This document shows, one piece after another, positions 12,664 to 58,214 of a DNA stretch of 64,000 nucleotides. The DNA is taken from positions 25,109-89,108 of the forward strand of contig JAFATB010000015.1 in assembly GCA_019244185.1 (NCBI GenBank), written 5' to 3'. Position 1 is the first letter of the stretch; every line of letters begins with the position of its first letter. The notes under the pieces were generated by a model. It saw only the letters and a program-made list of their open reading frames with translations. It was not told where the DNA came from and made no database searches. The position numbers and the translations under genes were made by a program. This stretch comes from Acidobacteriota bacterium (GTDB lineage Bacteria > Acidobacteriota > Thermoanaerobaculia > Gp7-AA8).

Positions 12664-14792
12664 TACTTCAACTCCACCCCATCCAACTCATACGGCGCCT
12701 TCACTCCCAGCTGCCCCAGCACGGTTGGGTAGATATCGCCGATATAGGGCGCGCGGTTGGTGGCGAGCTTGCGGTTGGTGAAGAAGATGCCTTTCACGAT
12801 CTCGGGGTCGACGGAGCAGTGGTCGCCGCTCCACACCGCTTTGTTCGGCTCGAAGACTTCCTTCGGGACGCCGCCGAGCGAGGTTTGCCAGGAGACGCGG
12901 TAGCCATTGTTGTTCATGACGAAGAGGTCGGGGATCATGTTCGGGTCGAACTTCTTGTACGCCTCTTCGCGTGCGAGGACGCGGCGGACCGGGTGCTGGC
13001 CGGTGGCGGGATCCACCATGGCCACGAGCTTCGTTTTCAATTCCTGTTTGAGCGCGTCGTATTCGGGGCCGGGATTCACGATGCCGTGCGCCTCGCGGCC
13101 TTTGAGGTTGATGTAGACCTCGCCGAGTCCCATCGCGTACGCGCGCGTCTTCGACCAGTCGACGTTCTCCCAGAACTGTCCGGAGTCGAAGAGCATTTCG
13201 ACGTTGCGCTCCTTCACCTGCACGCCGCTCTTGAGCGTCATGTAGCCGTTGAGCACGAGCCAGGTGTTGTAGTGGACGTGCGTGCGGAACGACGCGAAGC
13301 CGTGGTCGGAGACGACGTAAAGCGTCGCGTGTTGTTTCTCCGCGGCGGCCATCGCATCGCCGACGATGCTGTCCATCAGCTGATACGCGCGCAGAAGCGC
13401 GTCGCCCCACTTCGCGGCGAGCTTCGGATCGTAGGCGGGGTGCGTCGGATCGACGACGCGCCAGAACACGTGGCCGACGCGATCGGGGAATTCGAAGCAC
13501 TGCACCACGAGATCGTCGCCGCGGCCGAGGAACGAGCCGAACATCTTCCGCGACTGATTCACCGTCCACGTCATGTCGTCCCAGAAGATCTGCTCGGTGG
13601 CGAAGCCCTCGGAGATCGCCCACGTGTCGATCTGCCAGCCGAGCGTCTTGTAGAGGCCGAGGTCTTTCGCGACCTGCGGCGCCCAATTCACGGGCGTCGA
13701 GACGCGGAAGCCCGGCGGCAGGTTGCGCGGATCGAAGTTGATCGGCGAGAGATACAGCTTGATCTCCGGCTGCGAGGAGATGAGGTGAAAACGACTGATT
13801 CCGTGGATCTTGATCAGCGGATTGAAGGGGAAAACGAAGTCCACCCAGCCGGTCCACTGCCCCGGTTTGAGGGTGAACTTCTGGCCGCTCACGGCGATGT
13901 CGATCGAGTTGCGATCGTTCGCGACGGTGACGGTCATCGGGATGGAGATGAACGGCGGATCGTTGAACAGTTTGTTCGGCGGTCCCTGAATCTGCGTTTG
14001 GATGACGCCTTTGTTGTCCTCGAGCTGGACGACCTCGATGGAGAATTCATTCGATCCGCTGCCGCCGGCCGGTTTGAAGTCGAGCTCGGACGTGAAGTAG
14101 AACGGCTTGCCGACGCGGCCGGAGACGTCGGGCACGCCGAGGCCGGAGAGCATGTGCCCTTCGTCGAAGTCGGTCGCGGGGAACGTGACGGGCACGTGGA
14201 CGATGGTCGCCTTCTTCCCCGCTTTCGACGCCGCGTCCCAGAACGGGATGCCCTGCCTGCGGTTGATGACGCCGGGACGCGTCACCGGGATGTACTTCTT
14301 CACGGCGACGAACATCCCTGCCGCGAGCACGACGCCGATGACGATGGCGATCGACGCGCCGGCGCGCCGGCGCAGCGCAAACAGAATCGCGGCGATGATG
14401 ACGAAGAGCAGCGCGACGCCGCCCGCAAATGCGATCGGATTGCGCTCGCCGAGGAGAAACGGTTCTTTCGTCTCGTCGAAGGCGGCGAAGACGGGCAGGT
14501 ACGTTTTCGGATCGCGGCGGAGGAAGTCGAAGATGCCGGTGCGGCCGGGATCGATGCCGGTGCTGAACGTCGACCACGACACCGGCGTCTGCGCGGGCGT
14601 CGTCGGCAGGAGCGGACGGAACGTTCCTTCCGCGCGCAGGCGCGCGAGATTCGGCAGTTTCCCCTCGTTCATCCAGCGTTCGGTGTAGCCGGCATCGACG
14701 CCGTCGAAGCCGAGCACGATCACTTTCTGCTGCGCGTACGTGGCCGCGGCGCCGAGGAGCGCGGCGAGGAGGATCAGTCGTCGGAAAAGCAT
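12663..14792 (-). CDS. Alkaline phosphatase superfamily protein (type I phosphodiesterase/nucleotide pyrophosphatase), membrane anchored
   Basis: VLGFDGVD, PAQTPVSW, DRVGH, SDHGF and SGDH motifs; signal peptide plus two internal TM helices. Confidence 0.85.
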   Translation of the reverse strand: MLFRRLILLAALLGAAATYAQQKVIVLGFDGVDAGYTERWMNEGKLPNLARLRAEGTFRPLLPTTPAQTPVSWSTFSTGIDPGRTGIFDFLRRDPKTYLPVFAAFDETKEPFLLGERNPIAFAGGVALLFVIIAAILFALRRRAGASIAIVIGVVLAAGMFVAVKKYIPVTRPGVINRRQGIPFWDAASKAGKKATIVHVPVTFPATDFDEGHMLSGLGVPDVSGRVGKPFYFTSELDFKPAGGSGSNEFSIEVVQLEDNKGVIQTQIQGPPNKLFNDPPFISIPMTVTVANDRNSIDIAVSGQKFTLKPGQWTGWVDFVFPFNPLIKIHGISRFHLISSQPEIKLYLSPINFDPRNLPPGFRVSTPVNWAPQVAKDLGLYKTLGWQIDTWAISEGFATEQIFWDDMTWTVNQSRKMFGSFLGRGDDLVVQCFEFPDRVGHVFWRVVDPTHPAYDPKLAAKWGDALLRAYQLMDSIVGDAMAAAEKQHATLYVVSDHGFASFRTHVHYNTWLVLNGYMTLKSGVQVKERNVEMLFDSGQFWENVDWSKTRAYAMGLGEVYINLKGREAHGIVNPGPEYDALKQELKTKLVAMVDPATGQHPVRRVLAREEAYKKFDPNMIPDLFVMNNNGYRVSWQTSLGGVPKEVFEPNKAVWSGDHCSVDPEIVKGIFFTNRKLATNRAPYIGDIYPTVLGQLGVKAPYELDGVELK

Positions 14793-14856
14793 CGCGCGTC
14801 ATCATAGCGGGTTGAGGTACGCTCCTTGTAACGCGCACATCGGAGGAGTTAACACG

Positions 14857-16407
14857 ATGAAAACTCGCCAGTTCCTCGCGGCCGCGATCGCCGCGACTCT
14901 CATGCTGGCCTGCGGCGGCAGCGGAGAAAAGAAATCAGGCGGCGCCGCGGACACCAACCGTCTCGTCACGATGCTGATGAGCAGCCCGACGAATCTCGAT
15001 TCTCGCGTCGGCAACGACAACGCCTCGGGGCGCATCGCCGATCTCGCCTACAGCGGCTTGATCAAAGTGACGCCGGAGCTCGACTACGCGCCCGACATCG
15101 CGCAGAGCTGGGAAACGCCCGACGACAAGACGATCGTCTTCCACCTCAATCCGAACGCGAAGTTTCAGGACGGCCGCCCCGTCACCGCGGAAGATGTGAA
15201 GTGGACGTACGACTCGCTGCGCGATCCGAACTTCACGTCGTCGAAGAAATCGGGCTACGCCGTCGTGCAGTCGATCGAGGCGGCGAATCCGCAGACCGTC
15301 ATCTTCCATCTCTCCGAACCGAACGGCGGCATCTTCGACAACCTCACGCTCGGCATCCTGCCGAAAGGCTTCGACGCGAACACCGCGAAGACGAAGCCGG
15401 TCACCGCGGGGCCGTACAAGATCGTCGACTTCCGCACGGACGAAGTCGTGGAGCTCGAGGCGTTCGACGGCTGGCACGGCGGCGCGCCGAAGATCAAGCA
15501 CATCACCGTGCGCATCATCCCTGACGACACGACGCGTGTCCTCGAGCTGCGGCGCGGCACGATCGACCTCGAGACGAATGCGATTCCGTTCGAGAACGTC
15601 GCCGAGTTCGAGAAAGACGGCAAGCATCAGGTCATCAAGAAGCCCGGCTCGGTGTGGCAGTACCTCGCCTTCAATCTGAAGGATCCGATCCTCTCGAAGG
15701 TCGAAGTGCGCCGCGCGATCGCGCACGCGATCGACCGCGACCGCATCGTGCGTGACCTTCTGCGCGGCCACGGCGTGCCGACCGACTCGATGTTCGCGCA
15801 GGGACACTGGGCGCGCGCGGAGAACCTGCCGACGTATCCGTACGATCCGGCCAAGGCGAAGCAGCTCCTCGATCAGGCGGGCTACAAGGATCCCGACGGC
15901 GAAGGTCCGCAGATGCGCTTCTCGGTCACGTTCAAGACGTCGACGAACGCGGAATCGAACCAGCGCGCGGAGATGATCCAGCAGATGCTGCGGCAGGTCG
16001 GCATCGACATGAAGATCCAGTCGAGCGAGACCGGCGCGTTCCTCGAGGACATCGGCAAGGGCAACTTCCAGATGTACTCGTTCACGCGAAACGGCATCCA
16101 GGATCCCGACTTTTACTCGATCATCTTCTACTCGAAGAACTTCCCGCCCGAGGGGCAGAACCGCGGGTATTACAGCAACCCGCGCGTCGATCAGCTGATC
16201 GTCGAAGGACGGTCCACATTCGACCGCGCGAAGCGCAAACAGATCTATGGCGAGATCCAGCGCATCGTGCAGGAAGACCTGCCGTACGTCTCGCTGTACC
16301 ACCAGGTCAACGTCGCGGTGATGGACAAGGACGTGCAGGGTTACGTGATGTATCCGGCGGGCTTCCTGTTGTCGCTGCCGCAGATGAGCCGCAAGCCGCA
16401 GCAGTGA
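14857..16407 (+). CDS. ABC transporter substrate-binding lipoprotein, family 5 (peptide/nickel)
   Basis: Lipobox LAC, KFQDGRPVTAEDVKWT, GPYK, VRRAIAHAIDR, YSNPRVDQL. Confidence 0.92.
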   Translation: MKTRQFLAAAIAATLMLACGGSGEKKSGGAADTNRLVTMLMSSPTNLDSRVGNDNASGRIADLAYSGLIKVTPELDYAPDIAQSWETPDDKTIVFHLNPNAKFQDGRPVTAEDVKWTYDSLRDPNFTSSKKSGYAVVQSIEAANPQTVIFHLSEPNGGIFDNLTLGILPKGFDANTAKTKPVTAGPYKIVDFRTDEVVELEAFDGWHGGAPKIKHITVRIIPDDTTRVLELRRGTIDLETNAIPFENVAEFEKDGKHQVIKKPGSVWQYLAFNLKDPILSKVEVRRAIAHAIDRDRIVRDLLRGHGVPTDSMFAQGHWARAENLPTYPYDPAKAKQLLDQAGYKDPDGEGPQMRFSVTFKTSTNAESNQRAEMIQQMLRQVGIDMKIQSSETGAFLEDIGKGNFQMYSFTRNGIQDPDFYSIIFYSKNFPPEGQNRGYYSNPRVDQLIVEGRSTFDRAKRKQIYGEIQRIVQEDLPYVSLYHQVNVAVMDKDVQGYVMYPAGFLLSLPQMSRKPQQ

Positions 16408-54962: not shown

Positions 54963-55493
54963 TCACGCGCCGGCCGCACTCCAGAACGGCGTCGCGTCGA
55001 CCATCTTCCGGATCGCGGCGAGAAGCGACGGGTCGTTGCGCAGCCGCGACCGGATCCACCGCGCGAAGCGAACGTCGCCTTCGTCGCCGCCGTGTTCGCG
55101 CAGATGCGCGAGCCACGCGTCCGGATTTCCGTCGTACACGCGGACGAAGACGTGAAAGCGGATGAATTGCGCGACCATCGACGCGTCACCCCCCGGCATC
55201 TTCACGACGTCCGCGAGCGGCTCGGCAATCGGCTTCGCGCGCCGCCGCGCGAGCGTCGTCGTGAACAGTTCGATCACGTTTTCGATCACGTCGCCGCGCC
55301 GTTCGACGCGATGCGCGATGCGGCTCACGCGCAGCGTTTTTCCGGCCACCCGCACCTGCTCTCCCGGTCCGATCGGCAACCACGGACGACGCGACGCGCG
55401 GCGCCACAACACTTTTCTTTGGCTGCCCGGCGCGTACACGAGAAGAACGTATAAGTTCCTGATAACGCGCGTTTTGACTCGTATCCGTTCCAC
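54963..55493 (-). CDS. Hypothetical protein divergent from the ECF sigma gene
   Basis: GTG start after GAGGGG; basic beta-rich N-terminal half and helical C-terminal half (YDGNPDAWL...RFARWIR). Confidence 0.6.
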   Translation of the reverse strand: MERIRVKTRVIRNLYVLLVYAPGSQRKVLWRRASRRPWLPIGPGEQVRVAGKTLRVSRIAHRVERRGDVIENVIELFTTTLARRRAKPIAEPLADVVKMPGGDASMVAQFIRFHVFVRVYDGNPDAWLAHLREHGGDEGDVRFARWIRSRLRNDPSLLAAIRKMVDATPFWSAAGA

Positions 55494-55575
55494 TCGCACC
55501 CCCTCATCAACGGAGTGTGCGGAAATCCATGAATACCTACCTCCACAGCATGGTAAGGTACGTAAGAAATCCTTC

Positions 55576-56100
55576 ATGACGACGAATTCGCTGACGCAGC
55601 CACGGGTCGACGATCGGCAGTTCGAAGCCGTCTACGAACAGTACTTCCCGCTGCTCGTCCAGATCGCGTCGTTCAAGTTCAGCGTCCCCGATTCCGAGGC
55701 TGAGACGCTCGCGCACGATGTGCTCATCAGCTACCTGCGCAAGAGCCGTTTGATCGTCGAGCTGCGCCCATGGCTGATCGGCGCGATCTGCTACGCGAGC
55801 CGGCACTACTGGCGCCTCAACGGACGCATCCTCGACGCCGAGGCGGAGATCGCGGCGGACCGCGTCGACCCGGCGTCGATTCGGATCCTCGACAGCCTCC
55901 CCGACCAGCTCGCGGCGCGCGAAGCGCTGGAATGCCTCGCCCCGCGCTGCCGCGAGGTCCTGCGGCTCCGCTATTTCGAAGGTTGGACGGTGATCGAGAT
56001 CGCGCAGCGTTTCGGCATCAAGCCGAAGTCCGCGCAGAAGCTGATTTCGAAATGCCTGCGCCGCGCCGAGCGGCTCTACTGCGGAAAGGGCGCGCGATGA
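55576..56100 (+). CDS. ECF RNA polymerase sigma factor
   Basis: Region 2 (FEAVYEQY...EAETLAHDV...PWLIG) and region 4 (LAPRCREVLRLRYFEGWTVIEIAQRFG); 174 aa. Confidence 0.88.
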   Translation: MTTNSLTQPRVDDRQFEAVYEQYFPLLVQIASFKFSVPDSEAETLAHDVLISYLRKSRLIVELRPWLIGAICYASRHYWRLNGRILDAEAEIAADRVDPASIRILDSLPDQLAAREALECLAPRCREVLRLRYFEGWTVIEIAQRFGIKPKSAQKLISKCLRRAERLYCGKGAR

Positions 56101-57290
56101 GCGAACGCGAAGAACGCACGCGCCTCGTCCCCTTCCGCCGGAGCCGCCACACCCCCGACCCCGCCCGCGTCGCCGAGTTCGCCGCGACCGCGCGAAAGAT
56201 CCAGGCCGAACGCGCGCTCGCCGCCGAACAGGTGGAGAAGTTGCTGAAGGAAACCCCGCGCGCACAGTGGCCGCGCCTGGTGAACGAGGAGAGGTTGCGG
56301 ACGCACGGCGCGCTGGAGCAGTTGTCGAATGCGGTGGAGCAGCGGCGCGATCGCAATCCGGTTGAAGCACTGGCGGTGGCCGAGATCGCCTCATCGATCG
56401 CAGCATCGCTCGCGGATTACCCAGGCGTTCTGCTCGCGCAGATGCGGTCGCAAGCATTGAAGGATCGGGCTCAGGTGCTTTGTGCTCTCGCTCGATACGA
56501 CGAGTCGCTCGCGACGATCACCGCTGCAGAAGAACTCCTTGAACCATTCGGCGCGTTAGGGCACGACGTCGCGACGCTGCAGTTCACGCGTGCAAACGTA
56601 CTGCAGCATCTCCGTCGTTTCGACGAAGCCTCCCAACTGCTCGAAGAATGCCGCCGTACTTTTCACAGCTACGGCGACACGCGGCTGTCCACAACGGCCG
56701 CGATCGCGCTGGGGAACCTGCTCGTTCGCCGCGGCGACTACCGTGCTGCATGTCAGCTGCTGCAGCCACTGGCTCAACACACCGAGGCGCCGACGAGGCC
56801 GATCGTACTCCTCGCCCTCGGCTGGTGTGCCGTTCATCTCAACGCGCCCGACGACGCTCTCGAGTACTTCACCGGCGCGCGAGCGGGCTTTCGCGCGCTT
56901 GGCCGTACGGTGTCGGAGCTGAAAGCAGCTTACGGCGTCGCCTCAGCGCTCTTGCATCTGGGCAGGCTCGCTGATGCTGCCGCACAATTCTCAGAGACTC
57001 GTGACCGGTTTCTCGCCTCCGACGTCATCGAGGAAGCGGGCCTCAGCGGGCTCGGAATGGTCGAGGTATACCTGCTGCGGAACGAGAATGATCACGCGAG
57101 AGATCTCGCCGCGCGCATCGTCCATGAATTTTCCGAAGCGCGCCTGAATCAGCGGGCGATCGCGGCGCTGGCATATTTGAACGAGGCAATCGCCGCGAGC
57201 AACGCCACGCCCGACGTTGCCCGCAGCGTGTGCGAATACATCCTGGCGCTGCAACTCGAACCTACATGTGAATTCGCTGTGGTGAACTAG
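56097..57290 (+). CDS. Cytoplasmic tetratricopeptide-repeat protein
   Basis: Repeated TPR-like units (LARYDES, LRRFDEA, RGDYRAA, LNAPDDA, LGRLADA); ATGA overlap with the sigma stop; no signal peptide or TM. Confidence 0.8.
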   Translation: MSEREERTRLVPFRRSRHTPDPARVAEFAATARKIQAERALAAEQVEKLLKETPRAQWPRLVNEERLRTHGALEQLSNAVEQRRDRNPVEALAVAEIASSIAASLADYPGVLLAQMRSQALKDRAQVLCALARYDESLATITAAEELLEPFGALGHDVATLQFTRANVLQHLRRFDEASQLLEECRRTFHSYGDTRLSTTAAIALGNLLVRRGDYRAACQLLQPLAQHTEAPTRPIVLLALGWCAVHLNAPDDALEYFTGARAGFRALGRTVSELKAAYGVASALLHLGRLADAAAQFSETRDRFLASDVIEEAGLSGLGMVEVYLLRNENDHARDLAARIVHEFSEARLNQRAIAALAYLNEAIAASNATPDVARSVCEYILALQLEPTCEFAVVN

Positions 57291-57487
57291 TGGTGCGGCC
57301 AAGGATCGACGAGACCATCACCGAAGATGCGCACGACCAGCTTCTTGATCACCTTCACGATCGGATTCGGCTCTCTCCCGATCCCCACGCCATCGCGGCT
57401 CGGCGCCGCCTGCGCGGATCCTGCGAGCAGCAGAACGACGGACAACGCGACGACACCACGACCCACAACACTGGACACACGACGCAT
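57287..57487 (-). CDS. Small secreted pre-peptide (66 aa)
   Basis: AGGAGG RBS; Sec signal MRRVSSVVGRGVVALSVVLLLAGSAQA|; 39-aa mature part ending IVKVIKKLVVRIFGDGLVDPWPHH; stop overlaps the TPR stop in CTAG. Confidence 0.75.
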   Translation of the reverse strand: MRRVSSVVGRGVVALSVVLLLAGSAQAAPSRDGVGIGREPNPIVKVIKKLVVRIFGDGLVDPWPHH

Positions 57488-57615
57488 AAGCCCTCCTGTT
57501 TCCGGCATTTGCCGGGATTGATCTGGAGGGCGCCCTCACCTCGCGGTGTGACGGAACTGTTCCTTATGCCCCCGTAGGCTGTGCAGGAAACTGCACACGC
57601 GCGCCAGCGCGACAC

Positions 57616-57990
57616 CTAACTCGAGATCGGGAACAACGGCAGGATTCGCGACCTCGCTCGCGCAGGATCGATAGTCACGAGCGCACCACGCTCGAGTTGC
57701 ATCGTCAGATCGTGGAGCGTGGCGACGACGATCGGGCCGACGGCCGCCGGCGTTGGATCCTGCGTACGGATCTGAATGACGCTCGGACCACGCGCGTTGG
57801 TCGCGGCGAGGATGTTGCCGAAATCGAGATCGTGCGTGAACACGGCAAAGCCAGCGTCGCGCGCGTACGCCATGATCTCAGCGTCGGACGCGGTCGGATT
57901 GCCGAGCATCACCCAATGCTCGGCCGTGATGCCGTGTTGCGCAAACAACTGAACCCACTCCGGGCTCTTCATGTCGACGAGCAGTTTCAC
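57616..57990 (-). CDS. DUF5615 PIN-like toxin (VapC45-like)
   Basis: MKLLVDM, DAEI, FTHDLDFG and PSVIQIR motifs. Confidence 0.88.
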   Translation of the reverse strand: MKLLVDMKSPEWVQLFAQHGITAEHWVMLGNPTASDAEIMAYARDAGFAVFTHDLDFGNILAATNARGPSVIQIRTQDPTPAAVGPIVVATLHDLTMQLERGALVTIDPARARSRILPLFPISS

Positions 57991-58214
57991 TTCGCCAGGC
58001 GGACTTCAAATTCATCCGAACGCCACGCCGCATACGCGAGCGCCTCGGAGATGTCTTCGGCCTCGAGGTACGGATAAAGACGAAGAATCTCCTCTTGCGT
58101 GCGTCCGGCAGCGAGCAACCCGATGATCGTTCCGACCGTCACGCGCATGCCGCGAATGCAGGGGCGACCGCCCATGATGGCCGGATCGGCGGTGATACGC
58201 GTGAGGGCGTGCAC
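57987..58214 (-). CDS. DUF433 antitoxin (VapB45-like)
   Basis: RITADPAIMGGRPCIRGMRVTV...YPYLEAEDI; overlaps the toxin start. Confidence 0.92.
   Translation of the reverse strand: MHALTRITADPAIMGGRPCIRGMRVTVGTIIGLLAAGRTQEEILRLYPYLEAEDISEALAYAAWRSDEFEVRLAK

Follow-up and report, generated by a model that had tools for sequence, protein, structure and literature searches.

A conserved module of an extracytoplasmic function sigma factor, a soluble tetratricopeptide repeat protein and a small predicted exported peptide in Thermoanaerobaculia

Can a small gene-encoded peptide control a sigma factor of the extracytoplasmic function (ECF) type through a soluble partner protein? The question is raised by a locus of an Acidobacteriota bacterium (Thermoanaerobaculia; Gp7-AA8; assembly GCA_019244185.1), on a stretch of 64,000 nucleotides (contig JAFATB010000015.1, positions 25,109 to 89,108 of the forward strand) hereafter called the window. 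There, the gene of an ECF-type sigma factor of 174 amino acids (55576..56100, + strand) is followed by that of a soluble tetratricopeptide repeat (TPR) protein of 397 amino acids, a putative anti-sigma factor (56097..57290, + strand), which in turn meets the convergent gene of a small peptide of 66 amino acids with a predicted Sec-type signal peptide, a linker, a helix and a tail (57287..57487, − strand). An earlier note on this DNA had proposed a peptide signalling system of the RRNPP type (Rap-Phr, NprR and relatives), in which the peptide would be the pheromone of the TPR protein. Comparison of 41 loci, taken from a scan of one genome per species, indicates that the sigma-TPR-peptide triad is a conserved module in Thermoanaerobaculia. 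That this module is a peptide-gated soluble anti-sigma factor is proposed here as a tentative reading, and it may represent a previously undescribed sort of gene switch under peptide control.

Gene order and conservation of the triad

The sigma and TPR genes share the four bases ATGA at 56097-56100, where the TGA of the sigma gene (56098-56100) is overlapped by the ATG of the TPR gene (56097-56099). At the other end, a CTAG at 57287-57290 holds both stops of the convergent pair, namely the TAG of the TPR gene (57288-57290, + strand) and that of the peptide open reading frame (ORF; 57287-57289, − strand). The Shine-Dalgarno (SD) sequence of the peptide gene, AGGAGGG (57491..57497, − strand), is read three bases 5' of its ATG and is near-invariant in 26 aligned upstream regions. 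The coupling, the shared CTAG and the strong ribosome binding site had been described in the earlier note and are confirmed in the sequence, and its remark that no membrane anti-sigma gene adjoins the sigma-TPR-peptide locus holds for the neighbours inspected.

The first gene is assigned from its open frame, from ECF models and from homologs in 24 loci. Its product matches TIGR02937 (sigma70-ECF) over residues 15-164 with 53.9 bits (cut-off 42.9) and Sigma70_r4_2 with 43.8 bits (cut-off 25.7, E 2e-11), and the Sigma70_ECF model also exceeds its cut-off; Pfam Sigma70_r2 gave no match at E≤1. With regions 2 and 4 only, and matching ECF models, the protein has the make-up of an ECF (group 4) sigma-70 factor.

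Regarding the third gene, a profile search (hmmsearch, E 2e-28 to 8e-15) detects it in 27 of the 41 loci, immediately behind the TPR gene and on the other strand. One copy is found in the window, and tandem copies occur elsewhere (three each in L017 and L036, two each in L015 and L019). Among the 27 peptide-linked loci, 24 have a full-length sigma homolog, 55-78% identical, directly 5' of the TPR gene and ending at its start; in the others, the gene is cut by a contig end (L004, L012) or represented by a 70-residue fragment only (L027). The four-base start-stop overlap was found by script in 21 of these 24 loci and is also present, in the printed sequence context, in L014 and L015, which the script missed as its search window was too narrow; L008 has TGATG. 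The recurrent synteny for which the earlier note had asked is thus found at 27 loci and, in a diverged same-strand form, at L021.

The three copies of L017 (5195-5935) differ in their C-terminal tails, and those of L036 (2175-6170) are interleaved with fragments of TPR coding sequence.

How far such a count speaks for a functional link depends on inheritance. The peptide gene could be a functionally unrelated neighbour kept in place by vertical descent, and the 27 loci are indeed largely orthologous, their flanks containing trmB (22 loci), ruvC (18) and rsgA (17). Because orthologous loci share these flanks, the synteny count reflects mostly vertical inheritance and not independent events, which weakens its support for a peptide-gated factor. 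However, the triad recurs outside this orthologous context, in the paralogous modules L027 and L021, which lack the trmB, ruvC and rsgA flanks and lie in the same metagenome-assembled genome (MAG) records as L002 and L011. The peptide gene of L027 overlaps the TPR end by 11 bases. L021 combines a diverged sigma gene (38% identity) and a diverged TPR gene (34% identity) with a weak peptide-family match (E 1.6e-5) on the same strand, directly 3' of the TPR gene, and this peptide-like ORF has a predicted signal peptide and a related C-terminal tail. Paralogous modules inside one MAG bear different peptide tails. Moreover, no peptide gene is found (0/6) beside the sigma-less paralogs of about 510 amino acids (the second gene of L021, L025, L028, L029 and L031) or the truncated L026, and the TPR-peptide junction is kept while other neighbours vary, as with a DUF433/DUF5615 insertion in the window. 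An unrelated neighbour is therefore scarcely probable.

The sigma-less paralogs have an extra N-terminal helical region. In the place of the peptide gene, each is followed by a convergent conserved ORF of 88-112 amino acids without signal peptide, on the − strand in all cases (L021 5229-5492, L025 5429-5692, L028 5168-5503, L029 5444-5737, L031 5065-5352). The idea that this ORF is RelE/ParE-like was dropped, as it had no support in Pfam, NCBIfam or PDB sequences.

The convergent arrangement itself offers another explanation, at the level of RNA. Of 28 cases, the window being one of them, 23 have their TPR and peptide stops at a distance of -11 to +6 bases (L036 was mis-assigned in this measurement), and with a near-zero spacer each transcript must enter the other gene. 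Antisense interference could thus couple peptide and sigma-TPR expression without any protein contact, and the peptide could act on another periplasmic sensor. Consensus scans of 55200-57800 for sigma-70 promoters and terminators returned 0 and 0. The lack of a terminator-like site is in keeping with such interference, as are the hairpins lying between the genes in the longer spacers of L019, L023 and L032. Yet spacers of 21-65 bases do occur (L005, L019, L023, L032), and the paralogous peptide gene of L021 lies on the TPR strand, so that convergence is not required. Coupling by RNA alone is, on this evidence, highly unlikely.

No credible peptide match was obtained in the eight loci that are most distant (L033-L035, L037-L041). 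In five of them, an ECF sigma gene nevertheless lies just 5' of the TPR match (L033, L037, L039 and L040 by tblastn, L034 in the ORF listing), and the TPR protein is much longer in L033 and L034, whose ORFs were inspected. The two inspected loci belong to Terriglobia MAGs (L033 3063-6496, L034 3021-7273), where the ECF sigma gene is followed by that of a protein of about 1,000 amino acids with TPRs; sigma identity is 26-29% in L033, L037 and L040, and an H-x3-C-x2-C motif was read by eye in a downstream ORF of L034. The pairing of sigma and TPR genes thus seems to predate its peptide-linked form.

The TPR protein and its anti-sigma relatives

In the TPR protein, Pfam detects TPR families only (e.g., TPR_12 at E 3.6e-14) and no DNA-binding domain. 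From a 32-row alignment, AlphaFold2 gives an all-helical model with 19 helices (predicted local distance difference test, pLDDT, 90.9; predicted template modelling score, pTM, 0.82); residues 1-16 are disordered and a TPR superhelix of about 280 residues extends over residues ~110-387. A membrane segment is considered absent because the highest 19-residue hydropathy is 1.4. The all-helical protein without transmembrane segment of the earlier note is thereby borne out.

Relatives of this protein are numerous. Among 8,000 database candidates scored, 132 are relatives, of which the 120 listed are 44-60% identical. An exhaustive profile search returned 37,348 proteins at E≤1e-3, a level at which generic TPRs are collected, 5,033 at E≤1e-10, and 554 representative clusters at E≤1e-30. 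The HxxxCxxC zinc motif of soluble anti-sigma factors, sought within the N-terminal 110 residues of the best 150 representatives, is present in 67 of them and follows length closely: it occurs in 58/60 proteins of 431-480 amino acids and in 9/13 of 406-430, and in 0/44 of 370-405, 0/27 of under 370 and 0/6 of over 480. It is absent from the window protein. A Pfam zf-HC2 match (E≤0.01) was obtained for four of 16 representatives scanned, three of them above the gathering score of 22.2 bits (P0204, 28.9 bits; P0270, 29.7; P0240, 22.9) and P0242 below it with 19.3. P0204, P0240 and P0270 match the family profile at positions 6-395, 8-393 and 31-392, respectively (E 2.9e-109 to 3.7e-60), and the zf-HC2-bearing relatives align with the window protein from about residue 17 to its end.

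Since these relatives align nearly full-length with it, the window protein is a zinc-finger-less branch of a soluble, anti-sigma-like zf-HC2/TPR family, the zinc motif having been lost. It is called a putative anti-sigma factor on account of this ancestry together with its translational coupling to the sigma gene. Of the two roles that the earlier note had left side by side, anti-sigma factor or co-activator, it is the former that gains from homology, by the HxxxCxxC motif in 67/150 representatives and the zf-HC2 matches above cut-off in 3/16. A further relative, P0239 (901 amino acids), has two stretches that match the family profile (the best at 519-896) and may consist of two modules in tandem.

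RsrA, RshA and ChrR are examples of soluble zinc-binding anti-sigma factors. Like such zinc-binding anti-sigma proteins with a zf-HC2 domain, the TPR protein is predicted to be cytoplasmic and is encoded right after an ECF sigma gene (PMC8999054). Co-translation with the cognate sigma gene is indicated by the ATGA overlap kept across loci, and homology to proteins with the anti-sigma domain is established through P0204, P0240 and P0270. What separates the two is the N-terminal HxxxCxxC, found neither in the window protein nor in any of the 44 representatives of 370-405 amino acids. Without the zinc motif and with a superhelix of some 280 residues, the sensing principle of the TPR protein cannot be thiol or zinc chemistry.

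The sign of the interaction deserves separate consideration, as it is orthogonal to the question of what the peptide does. The TPR protein could be a positive co-factor of the sigma factor, comparable to the C-terminal TPR extension of ECF42 sigma factors, which is essential for activity (PMC8999054, PMC7826278), but made as a separate protein. By its published description, ECF42 is an ECF sigma factor under a cytoplasmic TPR domain thought to bind another protein, and in this respect it resembles the present pair; the missing zinc-finger part of the anti-sigma domain in the window protein would also suit a co-factor. On the other hand, the TPR part is fused in ECF42 and separate here, its role is positive there and presumably negative here, and no peptide gene appears in the available descriptions of ECF42. 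The longer relatives bear the anti-sigma zinc motif, and no sigma-TPR fusion exists among the 150 best representatives, the comparison with ECF42 being one by description only. A positive role is accordingly held to be decidedly unlikely.

The exported peptide as a candidate ligand

The peptide ORF belongs to a family of which 31 copies of 57-69 amino acids were aligned. In the window copy, a basic n-region and a hydrophobic core are followed by A-Q-A before residue 28. All 31 copies have two or more K/R in the first ten residues, a hydrophobic core of 11 residues whose mean hydropathy is 2.5 or higher, small residues at -3/-1 and no second hydrophobic stretch. The signal peptide, judged from these sequence features and not by a dedicated predictor, agrees with the Sec signal peptide proposed in the earlier note. 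In the alignment, the A-x-A site is conserved and the linker after it variable; a basic amphipathic helix and a conserved tail follow, and the mature part has a net charge of +2 to +5 in every copy. The tail is the end of the protein: its last ~10 residues read GD-x-L-x-D/I-P-x-P, with G56, D57 and P62 invariant and P64 nearly so.

The pooled ratio of nonsynonymous to synonymous change (pN/pS) is lowest in the tail (0.42), followed by the signal peptide (0.60), the helix (0.91) and the linker (1.06), and the closest pair (L020/L030) gives 0.06; all of these are rough values, as synonymous sites are near saturation. Constraint thus appears to fall mainly on the signal peptide and the last ~10 residues. 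The protein database holds 71 relatives of 55-84 amino acids, all unnamed or 'hypothetical' and without Pfam domain, and those with a source name all come from Thermoanaerobaculia; no model for the family exists in Pfam or NCBIfam, and a look-up in the ESM Atlas gave unnamed acidobacterial clusters only, below 0.9. The earlier note had set, as an outcome that would tell against it, that the small ORF not be translated. By its pN/pS pattern and its family of 31 copies, the ORF behaves as a real gene of a predicted exported peptide.

How could such a peptide reach a sigma factor? In the mechanism proposed, the TPR protein would hold the sigma factor inactive through its N-terminal helices, a remnant of the anti-sigma domain, its superhelix would be the sensor, and the conserved C-terminal tail of the neighbouring peptide would be the ligand that alters the hold on sigma. 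The ligand might arrive by either of two routes, given roughly even odds: it might be exported, trimmed and taken up again, as in Rap-Phr-type signalling, or the not-yet-exported precursor might be captured in the cytoplasm, in which case the module would report export flux and not cell density. Capture before export would avoid the membrane problem, and the module would then be an export monitor. FlgM with sigma-28, and the TPR chaperones IpgC/SicA with MxiE/InvF, are cases in which a regulator is freed or engaged by the export of a partner, the regulator-binding protein being a TPR protein in the type III export examples. The likeness concerns the logic of pre-export capture alone, with no homology claimed, and export is flagellar or type III there but would be by Sec here.

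The translational coupling of sigma and TPR genes, the anti-sigma ancestry and the linkage of the peptide gene to the module through paralogy all favour a peptide-gated anti-sigma factor. So do the pro-peptide-like anatomy of the small protein, the constraint and the invariant G, D and P in its terminal tail, the divergent tails of paralogous modules, and the fact that the closest solved folds of the TPR protein are peptide-binding TPR superhelices, Rap and NprR receptors being among the significant structural matches.

The operational description of RRNPP systems has five elements: a pro-peptide of small size, its export through Sec, a receptor 250-500 amino acids long, TPRs, and adjacency of the two genes (PMC10075063). 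All five are found here: the pro-peptide has 66 amino acids (within 10-100), signal-peptide features are present in 31/31 copies, the presumed receptor has 397 amino acids with TPR_12 and a superhelix in the AlphaFold2 model, and the two genes are adjacent in 27 loci, their stops overlapping in the window. To this extent the RRNPP-like system of the earlier note stands, and the module may work like an RRNPP pair. What does not stand is specific kinship, since homology to receptors of the Rap/NprR/PlcR/Rgg/AimR type was not found.

The Foldseek comparison with Rap and NprR receptors that the earlier note had called for did not support a specific relationship. Among the 104 PDB matches of the TPR model at E≤1e-3, the best are TPR domains of LGN/Pins complexed with partner peptides (E 2.9e-7 and up; template modelling score 0.47-0.60). 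The RRNPP receptors begin at rank 21 with RapJ (E 1e-5), followed by RapF (rank 30, 5.3e-5), pLS20 Rap (rank 33, 7.7e-5), phi3T Rap (rank 35, 9.9e-5) and NprR (rank 38, 1.4e-4), with template modelling scores of 0.47-0.55. A profile search of PDB sequences likewise ranked designed TPRs at the top (8.4e-22) and LGN/Pins below them (3e-8 to 1.6e-7), with RapJ at 4.8e-5 over one TPR stretch, RapI at 0.026 and NprR at 0.028. Judged from these comparisons, the likeness of the TPR protein to RRNPP receptors is generic to TPR superhelices and the protein is not a member of that family.

Rap has no DNA-binding domain. The TPR protein shares this absence and, like Rap, would act by holding a protein of transcription; functional constraint at the C-terminal end of the pro-peptide is a further likeness to RRNPP systems. 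It differs from them in that its N-terminal part derives from an anti-sigma family, that the presumed target is an ECF sigma factor, that the genes are convergent, that the host is a diderm acidobacterium, and that the peptide tail is conserved instead of pherotype-variable. The identity of the host, as the earlier note had assumed it, is supported by the genes of a lipid A acyltransferase, a TonB_C protein and Lnt in the window, and by the TPR-protein homologs, all those bearing names coming from Acidobacteriota/Thermoanaerobaculia MAGs.

Several observations weigh against a peptide-gated factor. The peptide is predicted to be exported and the TPR protein to be cytoplasmic, so that a return in a diderm would need trimming, outer-membrane passage and an importer, and no genes for these were found in the locus. 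The sole family-5 solute-binding protein of the window lies 40 kb from the module (SBP_bac_5, E 1.5e-93; 14740-16404, + strand); it is of the oligopeptide-importer kind and shows merely that such proteins exist in the genome. Whereas the signalling peptides of RRNPP systems vary, this peptide is most conserved in its tail, and tandem peptide genes with differing tails stand beside a single TPR gene (L017, L036, L015, L019). The zinc-finger relatives have the TPR domain too, with its most conserved C-terminal block, which means that a family-wide partner other than the peptide may exist. The retained basic amphipathic helix, with its charge of +2 to +5, also fits an extracytoplasmic effector, and the profile search of PDB sequences revealed no specific kinship to RRNPP receptors. 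Complex prediction for the TPR protein and the mature peptide (27-66), both given as alignments, yielded 0.02 and 0.01 against a mark of 0.32, evidence neither way. The narrower claim that the TPR protein is a cytoplasmic receptor for a processed C-terminal fragment, freeing the ECF sigma factor on binding, is regarded as unlikely.

Full-text literature searches for the combination of an ECF sigma factor, a soluble TPR partner and an adjacent exported peptide returned no description, and none of an RRNPP-type system outside Bacillota. PMC10075063, in its available text, describes TPR peptide receptors of the cytoplasm from Bacillota and the mobile elements of these bacteria. In that of the ECF classification, the sole mentions of TPRs concern the ECF42 extension and, in ECF267, a FecR-like protein, and its supplementary tables may list the sigma group (PMC7826278). 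The mechanisms of soluble anti-sigma factors set out in the accessible part of PMC8999054 are conformational change, partner switching and a mechanosensing complex, none of them peptide-gated.

Should the gated factor be real, a small gene-encoded peptide as cue would be a new mode of ECF regulation. If the receptor claim were also true, the module would be the first peptide-gated anti-sigma factor and a quorum or self-sensing circuit like Rap-Phr, with an independent origin, in a diderm phylum, from a family of zinc-finger anti-sigma proteins. Such a convergent invention in Acidobacteriota, which are abundant but poorly understood, would mean that the TPR peptide-receptor design is not tied to monoderm envelopes. 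The module is small enough for testing in a heterologous host.

Upstream DNA, the peptide as output and neighbouring genes

Both intergenic regions of the locus are unusually conserved, given that the TPR proteins are 40-60% identical across loci. Comparison of upstream regions across loci delimits conserved non-coding DNA 5' of the peptide gene (57498..57600, − strand), for which we infer a promoter or leader function. This DNA contains a GTGCA-N6-TGCAC palindrome (57581-57596), which occurs once in the window where 0.04 would be expected by chance, a second palindrome, GAGGGCGCCCTC (57526-57537), also present once in the window, and a conserved block ending in CGTCACACC (57545-57555), which among the loci is found solely 5' of peptide genes. 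A short GC hairpin precedes the SD. In the RNAalifold consensus, a CCCUCC block pairs with the SD over 7 bp, the six inner pairs being kept in 24-26 of 26 sequences and the outer pair in 22; as this pairing shows 0 covarying pairs, an SD-masking switch is a lead only. The region may act as a switch that masks translation, or it may be a group of sites bound by proteins. An Rfam scan of 55200-57800 at E≤10 gave three matches only, to eukaryotic snoRNA/miRNA families and at chance level.

The DNA between the sigma gene and a divergent hypothetical gene (55445..55575, + strand) is likewise non-coding by alignment of 25 loci, in which it has invariant runs and shows no three-base or codon periodicity; over ~130 bases, 23 loci agree at almost every position. 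Conserved blocks in it are ACGTATAAGTT, TTTTGACTC, GGAGTGTGCGGAAATCC, CCTACCTCC and GTGGTAAGGT. No consensus RNA structure was found for this region, which probably holds the promoters or operators of the sigma-TPR operon.

These regions bear on the main alternative, in which the peptide is an output and not a cue. An ordinary soluble sigma/anti-sigma pair would then answer a cytoplasmic signal, and the peptide would be an exported cationic amphipathic product directed at the envelope or at competitors, its gene being under this sigma factor or merely co-regulated. The basic amphipathic helix present in all copies, with a mature net charge of +2 to +5, accords with such a product, as do the multi-copy tandem arrays of varied sequence and the strongly conserved upstream region of its own, with a CGTC-containing block found only there. 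However, no bipartite motif is common to the upstream regions of the peptide (27) and sigma (23) genes, which have only the hexamers ATAAGT and GCGTCA in common, at different spacings. For want of a shared bipartite motif, reading of the peptide gene by this sigma factor cannot be asserted. The classical ECF promoter consensus is GGAAC-N16-CGTC; by eye, neither its spacing nor that of sigma-54 promoters fits either upstream region.

The anti-sigma factor NrsF of Caulobacter is membrane-bound. Together with the sigma factor SigF, it offers a precedent for a peptide output, as the pair adjoins and regulates genes of small Sec-exported bufferin precursors (PMC11626156). Here, too, an ECF sigma/anti-sigma pair stands beside a small gene with a Sec signal, the bufferin products being periplasmic. 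Bufferin precursors are nevertheless Cys-rich and need MNIO and DUF2063 enzymes encoded alongside (PMC11626156), whereas the window peptide has no Cys and no MNIO/DUF2063 enzymes are adjacent; no modification or transport genes adjoin it. Furthermore, the strongest constraint falls on the extreme C-terminal tail and not on the helix, and the convergent stop-to-stop placement would be unusual for a member of the regulon. Taken together, a peptide that serves as output only is considered somewhat unlikely. Even so, this outcome would still define a large uncharacterised zf-HC2/TPR anti-sigma family (554 clusters) with a zinc-less branch, together with a new peptide family, small and exported, whose conserved C-terminal motif is unexplained.

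The flanks of the triad in the window comprise genes of a TrmB-like methyltransferase and a conserved hypothetical protein, a DUF433/DUF5615 pair and a PAS-GGDEF-EAL gene. The two genes of the DUF433/DUF5615 pair overlap (57616-58214, − strand) and separate the peptide gene from the PAS-GGDEF-EAL gene. An insertion is suggested by L006, L008, L009, L012 and L018, where the GGDEF-EAL gene directly follows the peptide gene. On the sigma side, a listed ORF of 204 amino acids (54963-55577, − strand) was rejected as over-extended: its first ~45 codons are conserved non-coding DNA, as the sigma upstream region is conserved without codon periodicity. The divergent gene itself (54963-55439, − strand; ~158 amino acids, without Pfam match) is conserved and present in all orthologous loci with upstream sequence.

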